From an uncultured Candidatus Peribacteria bacterium (GTDB lineage Bacteria; Patescibacteriota; Gracilibacteria; Peribacterales; Peribacteraceae): 64,000 bases of DNA. How positions within the stretch are numbered: the stretch's first letter is position 1; the number at the start of each line of letters is the position of its first letter. Below, piece by piece: positions 23,017 to 37,657 of this stretch. Made by a program: the position numbers and the translations under genes. Under the pieces are notes generated by a model. The model had not been told where the DNA came from. It made no database searches and saw only the letters and a program-made list of their open reading frames with translations. Where the stretch lies: assembly GCA_964497975.1 (NCBI GenBank), contig CAZCFO010000002.1, positions 115,768-179,767 of the forward strand. Direction: 5' to 3'.

Positions 23017-24540
23017 GTGCATACGCGCGCCCGCCTCCACGGATGGCTGCTTCTCAGTACCGTCTTCTGCACGGGCGCATGCGTGCTGATTCTGGAGGTG
23101 CTTGCGGCCCGGCTGCTCGCGCCGTATTTCGGCAGCACGATGTACGCGTTTTCGAGCGTGATCGGCGTCACCCTCGGCGCTCTGAGCGTCGGGTACGCGC
23201 TCGGCGGGAGACTCGCGGACGCCCGGCCGAACGCCGCGTATTTCTTCGGCATCATTCTGGTGTCCGGTGCCGCGGTGCTGCTGACGAAGCTGCTTTCCGT
23301 CACGGCTCTCGTCCGATGGCACTCCGCGTTCTCCCTGGCGACGGGGCCCCTCGTCTTTTCCATTCTGCTCTTCACGATTCCTTGCGTGCTGCTCGGCATG
23401 CTCTCCCCCTTCGCGATCCGGCTCCTGCAGACGGAGGATCCGTCGCGGGTCGGCAGCCTTTCGGGAAACGTGTTCTTCTGCTCGACGCTCGGCAGCATCG
23501 GCGGGTCGTTTCTGGCAGGCTTTTTCCTGATCCCCACGCTCGGCGTGCAGTCGATCCTGCTGATGCTCGCCGCTGCCCTGCTCTGTATGGGCGGATTCGG
23601 GGTGCTGGTCTTCCGCAGCGGCCTGCGCCGGCCGATCCTTTTCGTGTTTGCAACGCTGCTGGCGTCCGTTCTTCTGGCTGCGGGCTCGCTGGAACGTCAC
23701 AATCCCGACATTCTGCATCAGGAGGAGGGGCTGTATCAGTCGATGATGATCTATGACGCCGAATTCCACGGCCGGATGGCGCGCTTCATGCGTCAGAACT
23801 TCAACGCCTCGTCCGCCGTCTACCTGGATACCGGCGAGCCGGTGTTCGCGTACACGCGCTACTACGCTCTCGCCGAAGCGCTGCATCCCGACCTGCGCAA
23901 GGCGCTCGTCATCGGCGCGGGGGCCTACACGATCCCGCAGCTGCTCCTCGGCAGTTCTCCCCAGGCGGTCACCGACGTCGTCGATATCGAGCCGTCGCTT
24001 CGGGACATCGCCCGGGAATACTTCGGCGTCGCCGATGATCCGCGGATCCGGACGTTCACCGCCGACGGGCGTCGGTTTTTGCAGGGCAGCGGCACGCAGT
24101 ACGATCTGATTTTCTCCGACGCCTACCAGAGCCTGTATTCGATCCCCTCGCATCTCGCGACGCTGGAATTCTTCCGCGCCGGTTCGGAGTCCCTCACGGA
24201 GCGCGGCGTCTTCCTGGTGAACTTCTCGGCGCGCATCCGGGACGAAAATCCCTCCCTGCTCTGGTCCGCGGTCCGCAGCTTCCGGGCGGCCTTTCCTCAT
24301 AGCGCCTTCTTCGCGGTGACGTCGAAGGACACGGAAGAGGTCCAGAACATCGTGTTCCTCGGGTGCAACCGGGAGTCCTGCGGGAATCCCTGCGCGGAGG
24401 CCATGGCATCGGCGTTCCTGGAGGAGGCATGTCGGAACCGGCTGACCGTGGACGACGGTATGCTCGCTGCCCACCCTCTCCTGACCGATGACTACGCACC
24501 GGTGGAATTTCTGGCGACCTTGCAGATGAAAGACTACTAA
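23017..24540 (+). CDS. fused membrane domain / spermidine-synthase-like methyltransferase-fold protein
   Basis: N-terminal roughly 220 aa with multiple hydrophobic helices. C-terminal VIGAGAYT...DVVDIEP...DLIFSDAY, typical of the spermidine synthase fold. GTG start. Confidence 0.7.
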   Translation: MHTRARLHGWLLLSTVFCTGACVLILEVLAARLLAPYFGSTMYAFSSVIGVTLGALSVGYALGGRLADARPNAAYFFGIILVSGAAVLLTKLLSVTALVRWHSAFSLATGPLVFSILLFTIPCVLLGMLSPFAIRLLQTEDPSRVGSLSGNVFFCSTLGSIGGSFLAGFFLIPTLGVQSILLMLAAALLCMGGFGVLVFRSGLRRPILFVFATLLASVLLAAGSLERHNPDILHQEEGLYQSMMIYDAEFHGRMARFMRQNFNASSAVYLDTGEPVFAYTRYYALAEALHPDLRKALVIGAGAYTIPQLLLGSSPQAVTDVVDIEPSLRDIAREYFGVADDPRIRTFTADGRRFLQGSGTQYDLIFSDAYQSLYSIPSHLATLEFFRAGSESLTERGVFLVNFSARIRDENPSLLWSAVRSFRAAFPHSAFFAVTSKDTEEVQNIVFLGCNRESCGNPCAEAMASAFLEEACRNRLTVDDGMLAAHPLLTDDYAPVEFLATLQMKDY

Positions 24541-24658: not shown

Positions 24659-25822
24659 ATGACTTTTATCAAGTCACCCGGTTCCGCTGTCCGCTTCCTC
24701 CCGTCCCTGGGGGGCTGCGCCTGCGCCTTCCTGCTGCTGTCGGCCTCCGTGCCTGCATCGGCACAGACGTACCAGGAGATCCAGAACTTCCGCATCGCGA
24801 TGACGGACGGCGCGTATTCCGCCGCCCCCGGAGCGGTTCTGACGTACAACATCAGCGTCACGAACTCCACGAGCGTCGCCATGAGCAACGTGAGCATCAG
24901 CGACACGGTTCCGCGCGAGCTCATCATCAACTCGGCATCCGATAACGCCGATATCAACGGACAGGTCGTCCAGTGGTCGGGCCTGACGTTTTTGCCCGGC
25001 GAGATGAAGCTCCTGACGCTCAAGGCGACCATCCAGATGTCGGTCCGCAACGCCGCAGTCATCATCAACACCGCGAAAATTGACGGAGGCGCGATGGCGC
25101 AGGACACCACCATCGTTCAGAACGGCCTCGGGCAGGGCGTCGGCTTATCGGTGACGCATAATCCCGACACGGCGGTTGCGGGACAGATTGTGTCGTACAC
25201 GCTGCGCCTGACGAACAGCGAACAGGCCACCAAGGACATCGACGTCCGCGCAAGCTTCAGCAGGAAATACGCGTTCCTGACGGCGACCGATCAGGGCCAT
25301 CCCCGTGGCAATCAGGTGGAGTGGAACAACCTCTTCGTGGACGGAAACGCCGCGCGCGACGTCATCGTTTCCTTCAAGGTCGACGACGCGGTGAAAGCCG
25401 GCGAGGTGCTCAGCTTCAACGCGAGCATTCCGGGCTCCCAGGTCGAAGATCCGGTGACGGTATCCGCCGCCGGCCCCGCACAGGTTGCGTCAAGCGCCAC
25501 GGTTTCCCAGCAGCCCGCCGATGCGTCGAGCGGCTATGGCGCGTTTCCGATCGATCCTAATGCCTACGTAAACGAGTCTGTTCCGACCGATTTCCTTCCG
25601 ACGGCGGTCGCAGAACCAGCGCCGGCTGCAGTGCTCGCGGAAACGCAGCAGATTATGCCCCAGACTGGTATCGCCGACTTCACGGGCGCACTTGAAAACA
25701 CCCGCATCTTCCTCCGTCCCATCGCCGAAAACCCCGCCGCCTCCGGCGCCACGGGACTGTCGTGGCTCCTTTCCGTTCCCGGTCTTCTGATCGGCGGACG
25801 CCTCGCGCGCCGCCGCCGGTAA
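24659..25822 (+). CDS. secreted surface protein with DUF11-like repeats and an extended LPXTG-like C-terminal signal
   Basis: Signal peptide. Modules GAVLTYNISVTNSTSVAMSNVSISDTVP and GQIVSYTLRLTNSEQATKDIDV. C-terminus MPQTGIADF..LENT..FL.P, then a hydrophobic stretch and RRRR. Confidence 0.7.
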   Translation: MTFIKSPGSAVRFLPSLGGCACAFLLLSASVPASAQTYQEIQNFRIAMTDGAYSAAPGAVLTYNISVTNSTSVAMSNVSISDTVPRELIINSASDNADINGQVVQWSGLTFLPGEMKLLTLKATIQMSVRNAAVIINTAKIDGGAMAQDTTIVQNGLGQGVGLSVTHNPDTAVAGQIVSYTLRLTNSEQATKDIDVRASFSRKYAFLTATDQGHPRGNQVEWNNLFVDGNAARDVIVSFKVDDAVKAGEVLSFNASIPGSQVEDPVTVSAAGPAQVASSATVSQQPADASSGYGAFPIDPNAYVNESVPTDFLPTAVAEPAPAAVLAETQQIMPQTGIADFTGALENTRIFLRPIAENPAASGATGLSWLLSVPGLLIGGRLARRRR

Positions 25823-25858: not shown

Positions 25859-27442
25859 ATGATCCGATCCCCTCTCGCTCTCGGCCGCCGCATCCTCTTT
25901 ACCGCCCTTGTCGCGGCGGTTCCCTGCATTGTTGCGCCGTCCCAGGCACATGCTGCTGCGGATCCCGGATGCATCGACGTCTTCGTGGAAGTTTTCGACC
26001 CCGCGCTCAATCCACTGCCGTTTGCTCCGCAGTTCACCTTCCGCCTCGACGGATCAGCCAGCACGCAGAACAACGCCAACGGCGTCGCGGCATTCACCAA
26101 CGTGCAGTCCGGTTCCCATACCGTCACCATTGACCCGCACTCCGCTTGGCAGACCCTGTCGGTGACTCCCGGCGGCGGAGCGCTCTCCGTTCCGTACGGC
26201 CCCCAGTGCGTCACGGTTCTCTTCAAGATGCAGCTGCTTGTGCCTCCGAGTTCCAGCTCCAGCTCGTCGTCCAGCGTCGCCACCGGATGCATCCGCGTCG
26301 TGAAGCAGACGATCGACGCCGGCGGAGCGCCCATCACGCCCGTGGAGCCGTTTGATTTCTGGCTCGACGGCAACCAGGGCATCACACAGACGAACGACGC
26401 CGCCGGCAACGCCGTCTTCCAGAATATCGCCGCTCCCGGCATGCATCAGATCAATGAATTCCCGAAGGCCGGCTGGACCCTCGTCTCCTGGGTGCCGCAG
26501 AACGGCGACGTGATGGTCAATCCCGGCCCGGATTGCGCCGTGGTCACGTTCATCAATCAGAAGGCCGCCGGCTCCAGTTCCTCCTCAAGTTCGTCGAGTT
26601 CCTCGAGCTCCTCGTCCTCTTCTTCCTCCTCAAGCTCCTCGTCCTCGTCTTCCTCCTCAAGCTCCTCGTCCTCGTCTTCCTCCTCAAGCTCCTCCTCGTC
26701 GTCCAGTTCCTCTTCCTCGGGTCTTTCCGGTTGCATCAACGTGATCAAGAAGACGTTTGCCGAGGACGGCACGACGCCCGTCACGCCGGTCGTTCCGTTC
26801 ACCTTCACGCTCGATGGCAACGCCGGCATCACGGCGATCAACGACGCCACGGGCAACGCCACGTTCCAGAACGTCGCGGCGCCGGGCATGCATCAGGTCA
26901 ATGAGACGCCGCTGGCCGGCTGGACCCTGGTATCCACCGATCCGCCGAACGGCGACGTGATGGTCAATGCGGGGCCTGACTGCGCCACGGTGACCTTTGT
27001 GAACAAGCAGGGTTCCTCCAGTTCGTCATCGTCGAGCACGTCATCTTCCTCGTCCAGCTCCAGCTCGTCATCCTCCCAGAACGGAGGCGGTGGCGGCGGA
27101 GGAGGAGGCGGGGGCGGGGGTGGTGGAGGCAGCGGCGGACACCGCGGTCATGGCACGACATACCTCAGTTATCTGCCGCCGTCCGCGAATGTCGTCGTCC
27201 CGCCCGAGCCCAAACCTCCCCGCAGGCGCATCCAGCCGCCGGTGTACGTCCCGCCGCCGGTCATCAGCGAGCAGCCTCTGCCCAAGACCGGTATCGATGA
27301 CTTCATGCGCCCTCTTGAGAACACGCGCCGCTTCCTGATGCCCCTCGCTTCACGTGAAGGATCCGCTGTCCTGTCGTGGGCGGCGCTCGTCCTTACGGGC
27401 ATCGGCCTCGGCATCGCCGCCGGCAAAAAGGCCTTCCTGTAA
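25859..27442 (+). CDS. secreted surface protein with 3 Cys-capped repeats, 49-Ser linker, poly-Gly, Pro-rich stalk and an LPKTG-type signal
   Basis: Signal peptide MIRSPLALGRRILFTALVAAVPCIVAPSQAHA. Three GCIxVxK...C..V.F.N repeats. C-terminus LPKTGIDDF..LENT..FL.P, then a TM segment and KK. Confidence 0.75.
   Translation: MIRSPLALGRRILFTALVAAVPCIVAPSQAHAAADPGCIDVFVEVFDPALNPLPFAPQFTFRLDGSASTQNNANGVAAFTNVQSGSHTVTIDPHSAWQTLSVTPGGGALSVPYGPQCVTVLFKMQLLVPPSSSSSSSSSVATGCIRVVKQTIDAGGAPITPVEPFDFWLDGNQGITQTNDAAGNAVFQNIAAPGMHQINEFPKAGWTLVSWVPQNGDVMVNPGPDCAVVTFINQKAAGSSSSSSSSSSSSSSSSSSSSSSSSSSSSSSSSSSSSSSSSSSSSSSSSSGLSGCINVIKKTFAEDGTTPVTPVVPFTFTLDGNAGITAINDATGNATFQNVAAPGMHQVNETPLAGWTLVSTDPPNGDVMVNAGPDCATVTFVNKQGSSSSSSSSTSSSSSSSSSSSSQNGGGGGGGGGGGGGGGGSGGHRGHGTTYLSYLPPSANVVVPPEPKPPRRRIQPPVYVPPPVISEQPLPKTGIDDFMRPLENTRRFLMPLASREGSAVLSWAALVLTGIGLGIAAGKKAFL
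26573..26719 (+). repeat. in-frame 49-codon serine homopolymer containing a 27-nt tandem repeat
   Basis: 49 consecutive Ser codons counted by hand. The unit TCCTCCTCAAGCTCCTCGTCCTCGTCT is perfect at 26624-26650 and 26651-26677 and imperfect at 26678-26704. Confidence 0.9.
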
Positions 27443-27449
27443 TCCCCTC

Positions 27450-28463
27450 ATGCCGTCTACGCGCTTCGACCGTGCAATGGCCTGGCTGTACGCATGGTGC
27501 AGCGTTGTGATGACGGTGGGATTATATCTCGACGGATGGTCGCATCAGTTCATCTTCAATCAGATCGATTCGTTCTTCAATCCCTGGCACGCGGTGCTGT
27601 ACGCGGGATTCGCCGCGTGCGCCGTGACGCTCGCTGTGTGGACGTACCTTCGACGCAGCGCATTTCGTACGTTTGCGGATGCCGTTCCGCCGGGGCACGG
27701 ACTCTCGGCCTATGGCGCGATTGCGTTCCTGTGGGGCGGCATCGCCGACCTGACGTGGCATCAGCTTTTCGGTTTCGAAAAAGACATCGAGGGGTTCATC
27801 AGCCCCACGCACCTGGTCCTTGCCGCCGGCATGGCGCTGATGCTTGCGGGCAACGTGCGCCACTGGTCACGCACGCATGCGCGCGGGGAAAAGACGCATC
27901 TGTGGACAGGGCTGCCGCTCGTGTTGGGCATGCTGTGCATGCTGGCGCAGTGGACCTTCCTCACGCAGTACGGCCGCTACACCGACTTCACCGCGACGGG
28001 CATCTTTCCTGACGATGCATTCTATCGCTTCTGCACGCAGACCGTATCGATCCTCGGCATTCTCGTGTTCAGTGCGCTGCTCTCCGGCCTCTTCACGTAC
28101 GTCGGCCGTCGTGCATCCATCCCGTTCGGTTCGGTCACGGTTGTCCTGACGGCGCAGGTGTTCATGCTTGCGATGATCCGCTACGGCATCGACTTGGTTC
28201 CTGCGGGCATCGCCGCCGGCATCTCCGGAGATGTTTTGCTCCGCTATTTCCCGAAGCGGCTCGCTCAGGAAAGACTGCTGGTGTTTGCATTCACGCTCCC
28301 GGCGCTTTTTTACACGGCCGTACTTCTGGTTCTCCACGTGCACGGTGGGCTGTGGTGGTCCATGCATATCTGGAGCGGCGTGCCGGTATTCGCCGGTGCC
28401 GCTGGGCTTCTGGCCGGACTCGCCGGGACCCCGATGGAGCAGGGAAAGGAAACGGATGCATAG
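27450..28463 (+). CDS. polytopic membrane protein with His motifs, function unknown
   Basis: 337 aa with about 8-9 hydrophobic helices and motifs DGWSHQ, NPWH, LTWHQLFG and SPTH. ATG at 27450, 8 nt after the previous stop. Confidence 0.6.
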   Translation: MPSTRFDRAMAWLYAWCSVVMTVGLYLDGWSHQFIFNQIDSFFNPWHAVLYAGFAACAVTLAVWTYLRRSAFRTFADAVPPGHGLSAYGAIAFLWGGIADLTWHQLFGFEKDIEGFISPTHLVLAAGMALMLAGNVRHWSRTHARGEKTHLWTGLPLVLGMLCMLAQWTFLTQYGRYTDFTATGIFPDDAFYRFCTQTVSILGILVFSALLSGLFTYVGRRASIPFGSVTVVLTAQVFMLAMIRYGIDLVPAGIAAGISGDVLLRYFPKRLAQERLLVFAFTLPALFYTAVLLVLHVHGGLWWSMHIWSGVPVFAGAAGLLAGLAGTPMEQGKETDA

Positions 28464-28575: not shown

Positions 28576-31524
28576 ATGGATACCTTCCGCCTTGTGCGCC
28601 GTTTCCCCCTCGCTTTTGCGGGCATCGCTCTGACGTTTCTGCTGCCCATGCACGTGAGCGCATTCGGAAGCACGAACATGATGGTCGACAGCGCGTCGAT
28701 CGTGAAGACCGGACCGTTCACCATCCAGGCCGGAAATTTCATCACGTACACGCTGACGGTAAAGCGCTCGAGCCCCGCCCTCGACATTGTCATCAAGGAT
28801 ACGTTCCCCGCGCACCTCGTCTTCGATCCGGCGCAAAGCACGCCCGGATGCACGATCGCCGGCAACGTGGCAACCTGCAACTGGGCGCGCACGATCAACT
28901 GGTACTCCCCGCAAACGCAGACGACCACCTTCACACTGACGTTCTTCATCCCGCCGGCCAACCCGCCGTGCGTGCTTATCAACACCGCAACCGTGTCGAC
29001 CACTCCGCGCCTGATGTTCGGCGGCGGGCGCGTGGTCCCCAACAACATCATCGTCTACGACTCGGTGACGGCCAATAACACGAGCAGCACCACGACGGCT
29101 GTCACGAACTGCGCGACGAGTTCCTCCTCGTCTTCCTCCAGTTCTTCCAGTTCCGTGCCCACGCAGGGCTGCATCCGCGTCTTCAAGGAAACGTTCAACA
29201 TGCAGGGACAGCAGATCAGCACGGTCGCGCAGTTCACGTTTCATCTCGATGGCGGCGTCAGCGCGGTGAATGATGCGAACGGCGACGCGCTGTTCACCAA
29301 CGTCACTCCCGGAGTCCATACCATCACCGAAATCATCCCCAGCGGATGGACGCAGCTCAACGTCACCCCCGTAGCCGGCGTGGTGGTTGTCGCACCCGGA
29401 AGCCAGTGTGCCGGCGTGGTCTTTAAGAACCAGCAGACGCTTCCGTTCAGTTCCAGTTCCAGCTCCAGCAGCATGTCCAGTGTCCCCACGTCTGGCGGTG
29501 CGGGCTGCATCCGGATCGTCAAGGAAACCTACAACGCGCAAAACCAGCAGATCCCGCCGGTCATGCCGTTCACCTTCACGCTCGACGGCAATCCCGGGCT
29601 TACCGTGACCACCGATGCCTCCGGGGTCGCCACATTCACGGGCGTCGCCGCTCCCGGCGTGCACACCGTCACCGAAAACGTCCCCGCGGGTTGGACCGCC
29701 ATCGGCGTGGACCCCTCAGGCGGCGTCGTGATGGTGAACCCCGGACCGCAGTGTCCGACCATTACGTTTAAAAACCGCCAGAACACCGTCAGCTCCAGCT
29801 CCAGCTCCGTTCCCAGCTCGAGTTCCAGCAGCACGTCCAGCGTGCCGACGTCCGGTGGCGTGGGCTGCATCGAAATTGTGAAGGAGGCTTACAGCGCCCA
29901 GAACCAGCCCATCACGCCCGTGACGCCGTTCACGTTCACGCTTGATGGCAATTCCGGGCTCTCGGTAACGAACAATGCGTCGGGTGTCGCCGTTTTCCAG
30001 AACGTCGCTGCACCGGGCATCCACACGGTTGCCGAAATCGTTCCCGCGGGCTGGACGCTCACAAATGTGACTCCCGCAGGCGGCGTTGTGATGGTCAATC
30101 CCGGTGCACAGTGCACGAGGCTCACCTTCCGCAACCAGCAGAATGCGCCTGCCAGTTCGAGCTCCAGTTCCGTTCCCCCGGCGACCGGGTGCATCCAGAT
30201 TTTGAAGGAAACGTTCAATCCCCAGGGCCAGCCCATCACTCCTGTTGCGCAGTTCACGTACCAGCTGGACGGCGGACCCGTCACCCATAGCGATGGCTCG
30301 GGTAACGCGCAGTTCATCAATGTCACCGCTCCGGGCTTCCATACGATCAGCGAGATCGTTCCTCCGGGATGGACACTCATCAACGTGACGCCGCCGGGCG
30401 GCGTGGTGATGGTGAACCCCGGCAGCCAGTGCTCCGCGGTGGTGTTCAAAAACCAGCAGAACGTGCCGGTCGCCAGCTCCTCCAGTTCCAGCTCAAGCTC
30501 GGTTCCGGCTGCCGCACAGGTGGGCTGCATCGAAATCGTGAAGGAAACTTACACCTCGCAGAACCAGCCAATCACGCCCGTGATGCCGTTCACGTTCACG
30601 CTGGACGGAAATTCCGGATTGTCCGTCACCAATAACTCTGCAGGCGTCGCCGTCTTCCAGAACGTCGCTGCCCCCGGCATCCACACGATCGCCGAGATCG
30701 TGCCCGCCGGCTGGACGCTGACAAACGTCACCCCCGCGGGGGGTGTGGTGATGGTGAACCCCGGCGCGCAGTGCACCCGCGTGACCTTCAAAAACCAGCA
30801 GAACGCCCCCGCCAGCAGCTCCAGCAGCGCCGCTCCCGCAGGCATGGGCTGTATCCGCGTGCAGAAGTCTGCAGGCGTCTCACCGGTCCCGGCGTTCACG
30901 TTCACGCTCGACGGCAACTCCGGCATTTCGGTCACGAATGACGCGGCAGGCGTCGCCGTGTTCCAGAACGTCGCCGCTCCCGGCATGCACCACGTCGACG
31001 AAGCGCCGCTCGCCGGATGGACGCAGGCGTCCGTGTCTCCCGCCGGCGGCAATGTGATGGTCAACCCCGGACCAGACTGCGCCGTCGTGAACTTCGTGAA
31101 CACGCAGGCCGTGAGCTCTTCCAGCTCCAGCTCCTCCTCTCCGGCTTTGGGCTGCATCGACGTGCTCAAGGAAACGTACGACACGCTCGGCAATCCCCTG
31201 CCGCTCACCGCGCAGTTCACCTTCCGGCTCGACAACGGGCCAACCGCGACCAACACCAGCAACGGCCAGGCCCGCTTCAACAACGTGCCGCTCGGCATGC
31301 ACACGGTCACCGAGGATCTTCCCCCGTCGTGGACCCTGCTCTCCGTCACGCCGGTGAACGGCCAGGTGAACGTCACTTCCATCACGCAGTGCGCCACCGT
31401 CGTCTTCAAGAACAAGCAGACGCTCACCGGTCTCGGCGGCTCGTCCTCCAGCGTGAACCCGTTCTGGCTCAATAACACGAACCTGCAGTTCTGGCAGCTG
31501 TTCTACCAGTCACTCAACCCCTGA
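28576..31524 (+). CDS. giant secreted surface protein (982 aa) with 7 Cys-capped repeats and no C-terminal anchor signal
   Basis: Signal peptide MDTFRLVRRFPLAFAGIALTFLLPMHVSA, an N-terminal DUF11-like module (GNFITYTLTVKRSSPALDIVIKDTFP), then 7 repeats separated by Ser linkers. Confidence 0.8.
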   Translation: MDTFRLVRRFPLAFAGIALTFLLPMHVSAFGSTNMMVDSASIVKTGPFTIQAGNFITYTLTVKRSSPALDIVIKDTFPAHLVFDPAQSTPGCTIAGNVATCNWARTINWYSPQTQTTTFTLTFFIPPANPPCVLINTATVSTTPRLMFGGGRVVPNNIIVYDSVTANNTSSTTTAVTNCATSSSSSSSSSSSSVPTQGCIRVFKETFNMQGQQISTVAQFTFHLDGGVSAVNDANGDALFTNVTPGVHTITEIIPSGWTQLNVTPVAGVVVVAPGSQCAGVVFKNQQTLPFSSSSSSSSMSSVPTSGGAGCIRIVKETYNAQNQQIPPVMPFTFTLDGNPGLTVTTDASGVATFTGVAAPGVHTVTENVPAGWTAIGVDPSGGVVMVNPGPQCPTITFKNRQNTVSSSSSSVPSSSSSSTSSVPTSGGVGCIEIVKEAYSAQNQPITPVTPFTFTLDGNSGLSVTNNASGVAVFQNVAAPGIHTVAEIVPAGWTLTNVTPAGGVVMVNPGAQCTRLTFRNQQNAPASSSSSSVPPATGCIQILKETFNPQGQPITPVAQFTYQLDGGPVTHSDGSGNAQFINVTAPGFHTISEIVPPGWTLINVTPPGGVVMVNPGSQCSAVVFKNQQNVPVASSSSSSSSSVPAAAQVGCIEIVKETYTSQNQPITPVMPFTFTLDGNSGLSVTNNSAGVAVFQNVAAPGIHTIAEIVPAGWTLTNVTPAGGVVMVNPGAQCTRVTFKNQQNAPASSSSSAAPAGMGCIRVQKSAGVSPVPAFTFTLDGNSGISVTNDAAGVAVFQNVAAPGMHHVDEAPLAGWTQASVSPAGGNVMVNPGPDCAVVNFVNTQAVSSSSSSSSSPALGCIDVLKETYDTLGNPLPLTAQFTFRLDNGPTATNTSNGQARFNNVPLGMHTVTEDLPPSWTLLSVTPVNGQVNVTSITQCATVVFKNKQTLTGLGGSSSSVNPFWLNNTNLQFWQLFYQSLNP
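29167..31419 (+). repeat. array of 7 in-frame domain repeats of about 100-110 aa
   Basis: Each unit runs GCI..[VIL]K......F.[FL]DG.....D..G.A.F.NV..G.H...E..P.GW......P..G.V.V.....C..V.F.N.Q and is followed by a Ser-rich linker. Confidence 0.85.
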
Positions 31525-32303: not shown

Positions 32304-32471
32304 GGTCGCATCGTACACGATAATTCTTGAATTGACAAGTATTGTTGGCATCAAATTTTCGCTTAAGAATGCCAAAAAACAAGCATATGGGGGCAATTGT
32401 GCAATAAATCTTGTCGAAATCGACTTCTGTTCATAGAGTTCCTCCTTTTGTCCGCTACCCCCCCCGCTTCC

Positions 32472-35400
32472 ATGGCCCGCCCCCGCTACGGATTCCTGCG
32501 CAGGACAGTTGTTTTCGCCGTGACCGTCAGCACTGCCCTTGCGACGCAGCCGGCCGGCATTGCCCTGGCACTGTCGTCCGACGTCACCCTGAATGTGCAG
32601 CTCCAGGCTCCTGCGGGCCCCTTTGTGGACCATCTCACGAACGCGCTGGCCGTCGCTCCGGGGACGGACATCACCGTGCGCCTGACGTACGATAACCGGA
32701 TGGACCGCGCGGGCACCGACGCCCGCATTCAGGCGATGATCCCCGCCGGCTTCACGCTGCTGCCCGGGACCACGAAAAACTGCCTGCATCCGACGGATTC
32801 CGAGACGTTGTGCAACACGTCCCCCGGCCAGATGGGGCCGATTGTCGAACAGTCGGTCTGGAACGGAAGCTTCCTGGCCATCTCCCCCACTGCGGGAGTC
32901 GAAGGAGTCCCGCCCCATGAGACCATCGGCGTGCTCGAGATGGGCCGCCTGCACTATCTGACGCTCCGCTCGGAAGGCGTCGCCAACTATGAGAACGGCA
33001 ATCCGTACTCGCCGCTCAATACCCGCTGCGCGGCGAACATCAGTTCGCGTTTCGAAAACCCGTACGTCAATTACGCAGTTCCCACGAGCCCGACCTGTCC
33101 CGCCAGCGGCCGCGACCTGTTCGGGCAACGGTGGTTCATCGTCCGCAGCGAGGCCGTCGCCAACTATGAGAACGGCAATCCGCAACCGGCGGTCGATACC
33201 AGCTGCATCCTGAATATTTCCTCGCATTTCCAGAACACCCCCGTCGCCCAGTACGCGGTTCCGGGGAATCCCAGCTGTCCCTCGTATTCGCAGGATACGC
33301 TCGGCAAGCGGTACTACGTTATGCGGTCCGAGGCGGTCGCCAACTACGAGAACGGCAATTTCCAGGATCCCGACATGAACAGCTGCGCCATCAATATTTC
33401 GTCGTACTTCACCAATACCCCCGTCGCCACGTACGCCGTGCCCCGCAACCCCAGCTGTCCGTCGGTGTCACATGACTTGCTCGATCGCACCCGCGGCCGC
33501 GGCTACATCGAATTCCGCATGCGCGCGTCCACCGTGCCGGGCATCTACAACCTGCCCGCCACGATCACCGGCTCCGAATTCACGGCCGCTTCCGATGCCG
33601 GCGCCATCGAGATCCGGGGGCCGGGGACATCCTCGAGTTCCAGTTCCTCTTCCTCCCCCACCGCCTCCTTCGGTTGCATCCGCGTCATCAAGCAGACCCT
33701 CACCTCCGCGGGCGCGCCCTTCACGTCCCCGGAAGCCTTCAGCTTCTGGATGGACGGCAACCAGGGCATCTCCCGGACGACGGACGGCAGCGGCACCGCT
33801 ACGTTCACCAACGTGGCCGCGCCGGGCATGCACCACATCGATGAGTTCGCGAAGCCAGGATGGTTCCTCCAGTCCGTCAGTCCCGCAGGCGGCGACGTGA
33901 TGGTCCAACCGGGTTCCTCGTGCGCGGTCGTCACTTTCGTGAATCGGCAGGGGGCGTCTTCGAGTTCTTCCAGCAGCACTCCGCTCTTCCAGTGCAACGA
34001 CGGCGCCGATAACGACGGCGACGGGAAGATCGATTCCCAGGACCCGGGATGCCACAGCGATGGCAACGCGGCCAATCCCGCCTCGTACGTTTCCACCGAC
34101 AATGACGAGGCAAACCCGGCTGCATGCATTCCTGGCAATCAGCCGACGGTGCTCAAGAGCCAGTTCATCATCACGCCCAACGGCTATTGCTCGAATGCAT
34201 GGCAGTCGCAGATGTGCGCCAACCAGTTGCCAGTGGACTTCGTGCTCGCAAGCAGTACTCCATCCCTCCTCGTCCAGTATCACACCTATTCCGGACACTG
34301 CTCGTCCGTGCGCATCCACATCCGGCTGGATGGCATTCTCAAGACCGTCACCAGGTTCATGGGCTGGCCCACGGACTCCACCGGCTTCCTGGATATCGGC
34401 CCGGTGCCTGCCGGAAATCATCAACTGACATTCCAGGCGGAGGGCACGCCGGGAGGCTGCAATACCGGCACGCTGGGCGGATGGGGCGGCACAGTGAATA
34501 TCGCCCTTCCCGCCCAGAGCTGTCCTGTCGCGCCGCAGTGTTCGGACGCAGCTGATAATGACGGCGACGGCAAGATCGACAGCCAGGATCCGGGGTGTCA
34601 CAGCGACGGCAATGCGGCTAACCCCGCATCCTACGTACCGACGGGCAACGATGAGTTCAATGCCGCGGCGTCCTCGTCATCCTCCAGCAGCTCCACGGCC
34701 AGCACGGGGGTGGGCTGCATCCGCATCGTGAAGCAGGCGCAGAACGCCGCAGGCGCTCCCATCAACTCCACGGAGCCCTTCACCTTCACGCTCGACGGCA
34801 ATCCGTCCCTCAACGTCACCACCGATGCCAACGGGAATGCGACCTTCCAGAACGTCGCCGCCCCCGGCATCCATACGGTCGCTGAACTCTCCAAGAGCGG
34901 ATGGACTCTCCAATCCATGTCCCCCGCAAACGGCGAGGTTCTGGTCCAGCCCGGAGGCAACTGCGCGGTTCTCACGGTCGTGAACCGCCAGACAGGAGCT
35001 TCCAGCTCAAGTTCGAGCTCTTCCATCGGTCAGGGCTGCATCAAGGTCTTCAAGGAGACGTACAACGCCAGCGGCCAGCCGATCGCGACCGTCGCCCAGT
35101 TCACCTTCGTCCTCGACGGAGGGGTCCAGATCCAGAATGACGCAAACGGCAACGCCCAGTTCAACGCTGTCTCCACCGGCGTCCACACCGTCACCGAGGT
35201 CCTTCCCCAGGGCTGGAACCAGCTCAACGTCACGCCCGCTTCGGGCGTCGTGATCGTCTCCCCCGGCAGCCAGTGCGCCGGCGTGGTCTTCAAGAACCAG
35301 CAGACGCTGCCCGTCAGCAGCTCCGTCGCGAATGCCAACACCGGCTGCATCCGCATCGTCAAGCAGACGGTCACGTCGGCGGGGGCGCCCATCACTCCGG

Positions 35401-35633
35401 TTGAGCCGTTCACCTTCATCCTCGATGGCAATCCGAGCCTGAATGCGGTGAATGACGCCTCCGGAACGGCCATCATCCAGAACGTCGCCGCTCCGGGCAT
35501 GCACCAGATCACGGAAACCCCCAAAGCCGGTTGGACAGTCCAATCGATGTCGCCGGTTAACGGCGACGTGATGGTCCAGCCGGGTTCCGCCTGCGCCACC
35601 CTGACGATCGTCAACCGAAAGACAGGGGGGTGA
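32472..35633 (+). CDS. giant secreted surface protein (1053 aa) with a novel triple Cys repeat, 4 Cys-capped repeats and two DNDGDG modules
   Basis: Signal-like N-terminus MARPRYGFLRRTVVFAVTVSTALATQPAGIALA. Module composition was read directly from the translation. Trimmed to the ATG at 32472 because the track start is TTG. Confidence 0.8.
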   Translation: MARPRYGFLRRTVVFAVTVSTALATQPAGIALALSSDVTLNVQLQAPAGPFVDHLTNALAVAPGTDITVRLTYDNRMDRAGTDARIQAMIPAGFTLLPGTTKNCLHPTDSETLCNTSPGQMGPIVEQSVWNGSFLAISPTAGVEGVPPHETIGVLEMGRLHYLTLRSEGVANYENGNPYSPLNTRCAANISSRFENPYVNYAVPTSPTCPASGRDLFGQRWFIVRSEAVANYENGNPQPAVDTSCILNISSHFQNTPVAQYAVPGNPSCPSYSQDTLGKRYYVMRSEAVANYENGNFQDPDMNSCAINISSYFTNTPVATYAVPRNPSCPSVSHDLLDRTRGRGYIEFRMRASTVPGIYNLPATITGSEFTAASDAGAIEIRGPGTSSSSSSSSSPTASFGCIRVIKQTLTSAGAPFTSPEAFSFWMDGNQGISRTTDGSGTATFTNVAAPGMHHIDEFAKPGWFLQSVSPAGGDVMVQPGSSCAVVTFVNRQGASSSSSSSTPLFQCNDGADNDGDGKIDSQDPGCHSDGNAANPASYVSTDNDEANPAACIPGNQPTVLKSQFIITPNGYCSNAWQSQMCANQLPVDFVLASSTPSLLVQYHTYSGHCSSVRIHIRLDGILKTVTRFMGWPTDSTGFLDIGPVPAGNHQLTFQAEGTPGGCNTGTLGGWGGTVNIALPAQSCPVAPQCSDAADNDGDGKIDSQDPGCHSDGNAANPASYVPTGNDEFNAAASSSSSSSSTASTGVGCIRIVKQAQNAAGAPINSTEPFTFTLDGNPSLNVTTDANGNATFQNVAAPGIHTVAELSKSGWTLQSMSPANGEVLVQPGGNCAVLTVVNRQTGASSSSSSSSIGQGCIKVFKETYNASGQPIATVAQFTFVLDGGVQIQNDANGNAQFNAVSTGVHTVTEVLPQGWNQLNVTPASGVVIVSPGSQCAGVVFKNQQTLPVSSSVANANTGCIRIVKQTVTSAGAPITPVEPFTFILDGNPSLNAVNDASGTAIIQNVAAPGMHQITETPKAGWTVQSMSPVNGDVMVQPGSACATLTIVNRKTGG
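32970..33506 (+). repeat. three in-frame tandem repeats of about 59-60 aa
   Basis: Units begin at 32970, 33147 and 33327: SE[GA]VANYENGN......C..NISS.F.N..V..YAVP..P.CP. Two Cys per unit. Confidence 0.8.
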
Positions 35634-35794: not shown

Positions 35795-37657
35795 ATGTTT
35801 TCGTCTGTCTGCCGCCGATTCCTCGCTGTTTCCCTGGCGCTCCCCCTCGTCCTCCCGCTGAGTGCGGTGGTAACCGTCGCCGAGCATGCCCATGCGGACT
35901 ACACCGACTGCAGTGACGGCATCGACAACGACGGCGACCGCCGGATCGATTACCCCGAAGATCCCGAGTGCTCCTCCATCAACGACACGACGGAGGACTA
36001 CAACCCCGGCATCTTCGTGACCGTCACGGACAACCGCGACCAGATCAACCCGAGCGGCGCCCTCACGTACGTCATCACGCTCAAGCAGCAGCGCGACCCC
36101 GTGGCGCTCGTCGACGTGTCGTTTCATGTTCCCGCGCAGCATTCCATCGTCTCCACGAGCGATGACGGCTCCATCGTCCCCGGCACGGTGCACTGGACGA
36201 AGGTCGCCGTGTTCAAGGACAACGTGCGCCGCCTGCAGGTGCACGTCGCCGTGAGCCCCCATGCGGGCCGCGGTCAGCTGATCGTCGCCCAGGTGAGCGC
36301 GGGCAACAACCAGTCAACCGACACCACGATGATCAACCCGCAGAACGTCCTCCCTTACCCGCAGAACCAGCTGCAGGTGACGGTGAGCGACCACCGCGAC
36401 AACGCGCTCGGCGGCGATATCCTCGATTACGTCATCACGGTCAAGAACCCCGAGCCGAACCCCGCCACGTTCCACGTGCAGGCGACGATCCCGCCCGCGC
36501 TGCAGATGATGGATGCCCAGGGCGCCGACCGCATGGGCGACCGCCTCGTCTGGCAGAACATCACCCTCAACCCCGGGCAGGAGCGCGCCTTCGTCTTCCG
36601 CGCCTCCGTGCACAACCAGGTTCCCAACCGCTATCCGATCCAGGTGGTGGCGCGCGCCGGCAATGTCGTCGCGACCGACCGCACGATCGTCGGCTCCGGC
36701 GGCGCGGGCCCGTACTCCCTCTTCGGCACCATCACCGACAACCGGGATGTCGCCGAGCGCGGCGACCTGCTCACCTACCGCATCCACGTCGACAACACGT
36801 CCGGCCGCCTCGAGACGGGCGCCAACATCGACGCCGCCATCCCCAACTACGTCGAATTCGTTTCGGCGACGGAAGGCGGAACGCTCGACAACCGCAACGT
36901 CCGCTGGCTCCGCACGATCGTCGCCCCGGGCAGCAGCCGCGACCTGAGCTTCACGGTCCGCGTGCGCACCGACGCCCCCGATCGCGCCCTCCTGCGCGCC
37001 ACGGCCACCATCCAGGGCGCCACGGCCAGCGACATCACGGAGGTCGGCGGCGGCCAGTACAGCTACGGCTCGTACATTTCGTCGTCCCGCGGCACCGGCT
37101 ACGGCACCCCCGGATCCCTTTCGGTCCGAAAGACCTCCGATAACCGCGCCGCCTACCCGGGCAGCACGGTCTCGTACACGCTGACAGTCCGCAACGCCGA
37201 CGGCGGCGAGCTCCGCAACGTGGCGGTCACCGATAACTTCAACCCGTCCGACTTCGTCGTCACGGACGCCGGCGCCGGCAACGTCGAGCAGGGCCGCATC
37301 GCCTGGAACATTGACACGCTCCGCCCCGGCGAGACCCGTTCCTTCCGCTACACCGGGCGCATCGCGCGCGTCGGCGGCGATTCCCTCGTCAACACCGCCC
37401 AGGCCTACACCGCGGACCTCGATTACGCCGCCATGGCGGGTTCCAACGTCGCGGTCTACGACGGTTACCACGGCGACTACCTGATGCCCCAGACGGGCGC
37501 CGGTGATTTCTTCGGCCCGATCGAAAACACCGCTCAGTTTCTCACGCCCGTGAGCGCGGCGACGGAGGGCAACGCCCTGCCGCTTCTTCTCTGGATTGCT
37601 TTGATTGTTGGAGGCGTGGCTGTGGGAGGTGTGGCAAGCAAGAAGTTCATCGTCTGA
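35795..37657 (+). CDS. secreted surface protein with a DNDGD module, DUF11-like repeats and an MPQTG-type extended signal
   Basis: Signal peptide. CSDGIDNDGDRRIDYPEDPEC. Repeats GALTYVITLKQQRD, GDILDYVITVKNPEPN, GDLLTYRIHVDNTSG and GSTVSYTLTVRNADGGELRNVAVTDNF. C-terminus MPQTGAGDF..IENT..FL.P, then a TM segment and KK. Confidence 0.75.
   Translation: MFSSVCRRFLAVSLALPLVLPLSAVVTVAEHAHADYTDCSDGIDNDGDRRIDYPEDPECSSINDTTEDYNPGIFVTVTDNRDQINPSGALTYVITLKQQRDPVALVDVSFHVPAQHSIVSTSDDGSIVPGTVHWTKVAVFKDNVRRLQVHVAVSPHAGRGQLIVAQVSAGNNQSTDTTMINPQNVLPYPQNQLQVTVSDHRDNALGGDILDYVITVKNPEPNPATFHVQATIPPALQMMDAQGADRMGDRLVWQNITLNPGQERAFVFRASVHNQVPNRYPIQVVARAGNVVATDRTIVGSGGAGPYSLFGTITDNRDVAERGDLLTYRIHVDNTSGRLETGANIDAAIPNYVEFVSATEGGTLDNRNVRWLRTIVAPGSSRDLSFTVRVRTDAPDRALLRATATIQGATASDITEVGGGQYSYGSYISSSRGTGYGTPGSLSVRKTSDNRAAYPGSTVSYTLTVRNADGGELRNVAVTDNFNPSDFVVTDAGAGNVEQGRIAWNIDTLRPGETRSFRYTGRIARVGGDSLVNTAQAYTADLDYAAMAGSNVAVYDGYHGDYLMPQTGAGDFFGPIENTAQFLTPVSAATEGNALPLLLWIALIVGGVAVGGVASKKFIV

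Follow-up and report, generated by a model that had tools for sequence, protein, structure and literature searches.

The question raised by this locus is whether a Cys-containing repeat that recurs in three predicted surface proteins is tied by two covalent bonds, one an intramolecular Lys-Asn isopeptide and the other a disulfide. The locus lies in a 64-kb window, by which we mean the whole stretch of 64,000 nucleotides analysed here. A six-frame scan of the window combined with alignment gave exactly 14 copies of a repeat of 88-95 amino acids (aa), all in three open reading frames (ORFs) on the + strand, with three copies in a 527-aa surface protein (25859-27442), seven in a 982-aa protein, and four in a 1078-aa ORF. 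The initial annotation, which was made from the sequence alone, had noticed a Lys, a Glu, and an Asn that are present in 13 of these repeats and are absent together from the first repeat of the 527-aa protein, and it had predicted from this a CnaB/SpaA-type domain held by an isopeptide and a Cys-Cys staple. From the sequence comparisons and the structure predictions described below, we consider it quite probable that both staples form in the 13 intact repeats.

Conserved columns and the joint loss of Lys and Glu

In the numbering of repeat 1 of the 527-aa protein, the columns of interest are Cys2, Lys7, Glu55, Cys81, and Asn88, and in the numbering of the family profile these same columns are Cys2, Lys7, Glu58, Cys84, and Asn91. 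By repeat-1 numbering, Gly1, Cys2, Ile3, and Cys81 are invariant in all 14 repeats, while Lys7, Glu55, and Asn88 are present in 13, the sole exception in all three columns being repeat 1 itself (25967-26236, +), which is the repeat that the initial annotation had placed at 25967-26233. In this repeat the three residues are replaced by Val7 (25985-25987), Ile55 (26129-26131), and Met88 (26228-26230), and both cysteines, Cys2 (25970-25972) and Cys81 (26207-26209), are kept. Repeats 2 (26285-26563, +) and 3 (26729-27010, +) of the same protein have the Cys, Lys, Glu, Cys, and Asn residues intact, and so do all the repeats of the 982-aa protein (29167-29436, 29503-29781, 29863-30141, 30187-30459, 30523-30801, 30847-31107, and 31150-31419, +) and of the 1078-aa ORF (33672-33950, 34713-34991, 35034-35303, and 35343-35621, +). 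The alignment columns thus confirmed that the three residues are jointly absent only from repeat 1 and that both cysteines are kept in every copy. The motif expressions by which the initial annotation had described these features hold as aligned columns but not always as literal patterns; GCIRVFK and TFINQK, for example, do not fit them. Across the other 13 repeats 18 columns are invariant, and repeat 1 matches 14 of them, the four exceptions being the three residues of the triad and a conservative change, Val73Leu. Since repeat 1 keeps 14 of these 18 columns, the loss of the triad exceeds its general divergence.

Covariation across homologues was one of the checks that the initial annotation had named. 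A word-indexed homologue search with the repeat profile gave no matches, and an exhaustive hidden Markov model search of 1.84 billion representative proteins gave 3137 relatives. The cross-tabulation covered about 230 complete domains of the close family, which were taken from the 150 best of the 3137 relatives. Among them, 222 domains have Lys, Glu, and Asn (K/E/N) and four have K/E/D; Lys and Glu are jointly absent from four domains and neither is ever absent alone, so that the covariation expected by the initial annotation was borne out for this pair. In the 226 domains that have both Lys and Glu, the Asn column holds only Asn or Asp, which are the two residues capable of forming the bond. 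The four homologue domains that have lost the pair, which we call decayed, are two with V/Q/N (one of them repeat 1 of P0024), repeat 3 of P0027 with E/Q/N, and repeat 2 of P0071 with A/A/F. Repeat 1 of the window, with V/I/M, is a fifth decayed repeat. Asn is thus still present in the decayed repeats of P0024 and P0027. In two decayed repeats (V/I/M and A/A/F) all the replacements are hydrophobic, as would be expected at buried positions. The closest genomic relatives that were found are in Candidatus Peribacter, in Peribacteria genomes, and in one Saccharibacteria genome, with 40-65% repeat identity, and seven more domains in Peribacteria and Saccharibacteria loci are all C/K/E/C/N. A cross-tabulation of about 500 more distant SpaA/SdrD_B-type domains was rejected because their first and last strands align unreliably to the profile.

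The number of independent losses was judged by pairwise comparison of four decayed repeats, namely, repeat 1 of the window, P0024 repeat 1, P0027 repeat 3, and P0071 repeat 2. Each of these is 50-58% identical to intact repeats as against 39-47% to one another and, since they are closer to intact repeats than to one another, a single ancestor is unlikely for the three decayed lineages. P0024 is a colinear homologue of the 527-aa protein, and in both proteins it is the first repeat that has Val at the Lys position. Because the change is in the same place in colinear proteins, repeat 1 of the window and P0024 repeat 1 probably share one loss of Lys. By this reckoning from the alignments, Lys and Glu appear to have been lost together at least three times independently. 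After the shared loss of Lys, the other two positions probably decayed unequally, to Gln and Asn in P0024 and to Ile and Met in repeat 1 of the window. Loss of Lys first and of Glu and Asn later is what would be expected if Glu and Asn have no role without Lys.

Fold, strand register, and solved isopeptide triads

The fold was predicted with AlphaFold2 from an input alignment that consisted of the 14 window repeats only. The predicted local distance difference test score was 96.5 for the decayed repeat 1 and 96.7 for an intact repeat, and both models are all-beta with eight strands in the same layout, Lys7 being in the strand at 2-10, Glu58 in that at 52-59, and Asn91 in that at 84-93. When the models were compared by Foldseek with structures in the PDB, the top matches were almost all CnaB-type domains that carry isopeptide bonds in the pilins and adhesins of Gram-positive bacteria, among them those of RrgB, the Bacillus anthracis TIE protein 6fwv, BcpA, SpaD, UafA, SdrD B, and a Lactobacillus CnaB2, with query-normalised template modelling scores (TM-scores) of 0.56-0.73 at a probability of 1.0. 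The match to 6fwv has a TM-score of 0.67, a root-mean-square deviation of 3.7 Å, and 24% identity. The Mobiluncus adhesin 5u6f, which has disulfide, isopeptide, and ester bonds, ranked 30th for the intact repeat. Pfam families point the same way. The 982-aa protein scored 51.3 bits with SpaA and, summed over its repeats, 50.6 bits with SpaA_4; the window proteins matched SpaA, SpaA_4, SpaA_2, and SdrD_B, and the domains of the homologues matched DUF5979 and DUF7601. All of these are CnaB-like isopeptide families of the Transthyretin clan, CL0287 (PMC12617251). At E <= 0.01, SpaA_4 is matched by seven of the 14 single repeats, and the decayed repeat matches no family. The match to SpaA_4 is confined to the middle of its profile, positions 11-67 of 107. 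The assignment of the repeats, from these models and matches, to a predicted CnaB-like beta-sandwich domain of the transthyretin fold is well supported.

The strand register was obtained from a mean-field coupling analysis of 211 distinct family domains (effective number 199). The most strongly coupled pair is 8-90, followed by 6-86, 10-90, and 10-89, and from these pairs the first and last strands (A and G) would be parallel with an offset of 80-82. With this offset Cys2 would be opposite Cys84, and Lys7 and Asn91 would lie diagonally to each other on the other side of the sheet, the one that faces the core. Positions 8 and 90 covary in that Glu goes with Lys whereas Gln or Lys goes with Val or Ile, a switch that can be seen inside the window itself as KE...FKN versus KQ...F[VI]N, and by its residues the pair looks like a surface salt bridge across the two strands. 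Both cysteines are present in 219 of the 230 domains and in every decayed repeat. The register supports a predicted disulfide near the start of the A/G strand pair with the isopeptide five to seven residues along.

Do the three positions correspond to a triad known to react? In CnaB-like domains a Glu catalyses a bond between the first and the last strand, which are neighbours in one sheet (PMC12617251). A narrow profile built from the 14 repeats reached only RrgA among PDB sequences, at E = 1.6. When a broad family profile of 42 sequences was searched against them, Glu58 ('htvtE') aligned with chain residue 312 and Asn91 ('fkNrq') with chain residue 352 of BcpA (3kpt_A). Since the spacing of 40 between 312 and 352 is that between E472 and N512, Glu58 and Asn91 were assigned to these two residues of BcpA, in which K417, E472, and N512 are required for isopeptide formation (PMC5487036). 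The Glu in the motifs of RrgA and TIE also aligned with Glu58, and the counterpart of Lys7 was the Lys in 'EITKVD', with which the CnaB repeats of 6fwv begin. Of what the initial annotation had proposed, the CnaB/SpaA-type domain stands, and the Lys/Asn/Glu triad with its Cys staple stands as a prediction that draws on the fold, the alignment, the co-loss, the restriction of the last-strand column to Asn or Asp, and the register.

Covalent and non-covalent readings of the repeat

Several points weigh against two covalent staples in each intact repeat. The Foldseek E-values are weak, about 2e-3, and since they are so modest it is the fold class that is established and not close kinship. Single repeats are below the Pfam thresholds, the best consensus-like one scoring 23.7 bits against the SpaA_4 gathering threshold of 27.3. 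Lys7 is mapped tentatively, by short local alignments to 6fwv, and hhalign of the family with CnaB2 of FbaB, the sequence of which was checked against 2x5p, aligned three columns and then the Glu strand only, with 10% probability. The independent losses of the triad are few, three to four. Some domains with the full triad form the bond slowly or never, as described where PMC4014117 deals with SpaD. As for the second staple, the disulfide may be unstable should the habitat be reducing groundwater.

The triad could instead be kept non-covalently, with Lys and Glu as a buried ion pair and Asn as a hydrogen-bonding partner, and the disulfide would then be the only staple. A buried ion pair would also vanish as a pair, which fits the joint loss of Lys and Glu; the Asn that is kept in P0024 repeat 1 and P0027 repeat 3 would mean that it is more loosely coupled to them; and the failure of single repeats to reach the threshold of any curated isopeptide family fits as well. 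However, all three positions correspond to those of a solved triad without which the isopeptide does not form, and the fold is the one that hosts this reaction. Moreover, hydrogen bonding would not require that the last-strand column be Asn or Asp only in all 226 domains with Lys and Glu, and to bury an unpaired pair of charges in a beta-sandwich of 90 aa would be costly if the pair did not react. We consider a purely non-covalent triad unlikely. It is likewise improbable that the difference from a doubly stapled repeat lies in the cysteines, the isopeptide forming but the cysteines making no stable disulfide in vivo because they are reduced, metal-binding, or redox-switchable. Candidate phyla radiation (CPR) bacteria such as Peribacteria have been sampled from groundwater (PMC4736985), and bacterial phyla classed as 'other' contribute only 2.8% of the disulfide-bearing isopeptide domains in the survey of PMC12617251. 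Against this, the Cys pair is nearly universal in the family and outlasts the triad in all the decayed repeats, the register derived from the couplings sets the two residues directly opposite each other on neighbouring strands, acidic double-disulfide repeats are present in neighbouring proteins, and Peribacteria encode a disulfide-bond-formation protein and many Cys-rich exported proteins (PMC4736985). That the loss of the triad in repeat 1 is incidental, this repeat being merely the most diverged copy, we regard as highly improbable. Repeat 1 is indeed the most divergent, with 33-49% identity to the other repeats, but its only non-conservative changes in the invariant columns are at the triad positions, and the joint loss of Lys and Glu recurs independently in other proteins.

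The mechanism that we propose for the doubly stapled repeat is as follows. The 14 repeats would be stalk modules of secreted surface proteins, and in 13 of these modules strands A and G would be tied twice, by the Cys2-Cys84 disulfide near their start and by a Lys7-Asn91 isopeptide that forms spontaneously with Glu58, a buried residue of the G-x-H-x-[VI]-x-E strand, as the catalyst. The chain would enter the module at strand A and exit at strand G and, if so, a pulling force would bypass the remainder of the fold through either staple. Such a bypass of tensile load is established CnaB behaviour in Spy0128, as cited in PMC12617251. The staples would make the stalk inextensible and resistant to heat and to proteases; the bypass through the disulfide would be reducible and that through the isopeptide would not. 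In repeat 1 of the 527-aa protein, loss of Lys would have abolished the reaction and left Glu and Asn free to drift, so that the triad positions would now be hydrophobic core (Val, Ile, and Met) with the disulfide as the only remaining staple. The first strand of this N-terminal module would be a free end right after the signal peptide and, speculatively, the isopeptide may be least needed there and its loss may be tolerated as long as the cysteines are kept. The decayed repeat of P0024 is also N-terminal; those of P0027 and P0071 are not.

Host proteins, neighbouring genes, and related systems

In the 527-aa protein a signal peptide, likely cleaved between AHA and AADPGC, is followed by three CnaB-like repeats with linkers of Ser and of Gly, and at the C terminus there is an LPKTG sorting signal (27278-27442, +). 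This signal reads LPKTG-IDDF-x3-LENTRRFLMP and is followed by a hydrophobic span and KKAFL. An LPXTG-type motif with a hydrophobic span and a basic tail is present in the 527-aa protein and also in two DUF11 proteins of 387 aa and 620 aa, and in these two (at 25655-25822 and 37484-37657, respectively, both +) the extended signal recurs as well. The form common to the three proteins is [LM]P[KQ]TG-[IA]-x-DF-x(2-3)-[LI]ENT-xx-FL-x-P, after which come about 15 residues, a membrane span, and a basic tail. Conservation extends over an unusually long stretch from the LPXTG-like motif to the membrane span, and a looser version of this stretch is seen in the homologues P0024 and P0027. This signal makes sortase anchoring probable for the 527-aa protein. 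A motif search found no TLxTC-type sortase motif in any plausible ORF of the window. Peribacteria genomes encode sortase A (PMC4736985), and therefore the sortase gene may lie elsewhere in the genome. For the possibility that the proteins are sortase-polymerised pilins no evidence turned up, although no test was aimed at it. Between repeats 2 and 3 of the 527-aa protein there are 49 consecutive Ser residues (26573-26719, +), shorter Ser linkers lie between all the repeats, and a run of 16 Gly residues precedes the sorting signal (27083-27130, +). The Ser linkers could be glycosylated spacers.

The 982-aa protein (28576-31524, +) has a signal peptide and an N-terminal DUF11-type region ahead of its seven intact repeats. 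The 1078-aa ORF (32397-35633, +) has, besides its four intact repeats, two acidic double-disulfide repeats. Its database homologue P0005 is 1053 aa long, a length that a start at 32472 would match. Searches for the exact sequences of the 527-aa and 1053-aa proteins gave no public contig. Signal peptides are present in both the 982-aa and the 1078-aa proteins, and no C-terminal sorting signal or membrane span was found in either of them; the stop of the 1078-aa ORF is three residues past its last repeat. The N-terminal part of this ORF has three repeats of about 59 aa with two Cys each (32967-33500, +), of the pattern RSE[GA]VANYENGN...C..NISS.F.N..V..YAVP..PSCP, for which no family match was found. 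The two acidic double-disulfide repeats (33993-34091 and 34539-34637, +) are near-identical, match NCBIfam NF033662 at E = 1.7e-16, and lie on either side of a module of about 150 aa that contains Cys and is inserted between CnaB-like repeats 1 and 2. The 620-aa DUF11 protein has one such acidic repeat too.

DUF11 domains are on both flanks of the cluster (24659-25822 and 35795-37657, +), and in Peribacteria relatives and in P0027 they are interleaved with CnaB-like repeats within single proteins. Recent work has shown that DUF11 is itself an isopeptide domain, of the CnaA-like type. Between the repeat-protein genes lies an ORF for a multi-pass membrane protein of 369 aa, without an NCBIfam match (27354-28463, +). 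Called from its GTG start, it shares 89 bases with the end of the 527-aa gene and, because of this overlap, probably starts in reality at a more downstream position. A fused MFS (major facilitator superfamily)/spermidine synthase gene (23017-24540, +; NF037959, E = 1.9e-68) is located immediately upstream of the surface-protein cluster. The window also contains recG, copA, purL, and priA, and its G+C content is 61%, close to the 58.5% that is reported for Peribacteria. Its source is most likely a CPR bacterium of a Peribacteria-like kind.

The repeats share with the CnaB domains of Gram-positive pilins and adhesins (BcpA CNA3, RrgB D2-D4, FbaB CnaB2/SpyCatcher, and TIE) the transthyretin-like beta-sandwich, the Lys in the first strand, the Asn or Asp on the adjacent parallel last strand, the Glu in a G-x-[YH]-x-[VI]-x-E strand, and the occurrence as tandem stalk modules in proteins with LPXTG-type signals. 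They differ from them in that the identity is only 10-24%, in that the window repeats have an invariant Cys pair on the two strands that the isopeptide would join and have His for the Tyr and GW for the GY of the classical motif, and in that the host likely belongs to the CPR and not to Bacillota or Actinomycetota. With SpaA_4 (PF24514), SpaA_2 (PF19403), and SpaA_3 (PF20674) they share the clan, and in these families a predicted isopeptide together with a disulfide is the norm. SpaA_4 is the family matched by most single repeats, but the domains of the window are shorter, 88-95 aa versus about 117.

The initial annotation had called it unusual that an isopeptide and a disulfide should occur together, and in this it is contradicted by a survey and by solved structures. 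A 2025 survey of isopeptide domains (PMC12617251) predicted disulfides in 99.5% of SpaA_4, 95.5% of SpaA_2, 99.5% of SpaA_3, and 39.8% of DUF5979 domains. Crystallography and mass spectrometry have shown that a single domain of a Mobiluncus mulieris adhesin contains both bonds, and the isopeptide domains of Actinomyces FimP and FimA have a similarly placed disulfide (PMC10619420). The M. mulieris 47I structure (5u6f) thus resembles the window repeats in that an Ig-like stalk domain has both an isopeptide and a disulfide, experimental there and predicted here. Unlike in 47I, where the isopeptide joins strands 1 and 9 and the disulfide strands 2 and 5, both bonds would be on the first and last strands in the window repeats. 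Two staples on a single pair of strands may be a rarer arrangement, although the site of the disulfide in SpaA_2, SpaA_3, and SpaA_4 is not stated in PMC12617251.

Among the open-access full texts that were searched, no paper was found that ties isopeptide bonds to the CPR, Patescibacteria, or Saccharibacteria. What is modestly new, then, is a subfamily that lies below the Pfam thresholds, has its closest genomic relatives in Peribacteria and Saccharibacteria, and would have both staples on the same pair of strands. Since other systems already provide documented cases of the chemistry, the fold, and the pairing with a disulfide, the advance is incremental. The natural repeat without a triad is a built-in control by which the effects of the disulfide and of the isopeptide could be told apart, and the compact module of about 90 residues, modelled at a confidence score of 96 or more, could be a scaffold for Tag/Catcher-style protein ligation.

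Both Peribacteria and Saccharibacteria are believed to live in attachment to other cells, and what their large, Cys-rich exported proteins do is for the most part unexplained. A wider reading of the repeats is that they form a CPR-centred, CnaB-like subfamily outside the curated models in which a disulfide and an isopeptide on one strand pair make the mechanics of the stalk redox-dependent. Taken as a whole this combination is doubtful, with some small chance of being right. If it were true, the terminal modules that have only the disulfide would be locked under oxidising conditions and extensible under reducing ones, and the attachment stalks of tiny, probably symbiotic bacteria would have redox-dependent mechanics. 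If the isopeptide and the disulfide are confirmed, self-locking isopeptide stalk domains would be extended to the surface proteins of Peribacteria and Saccharibacteria.

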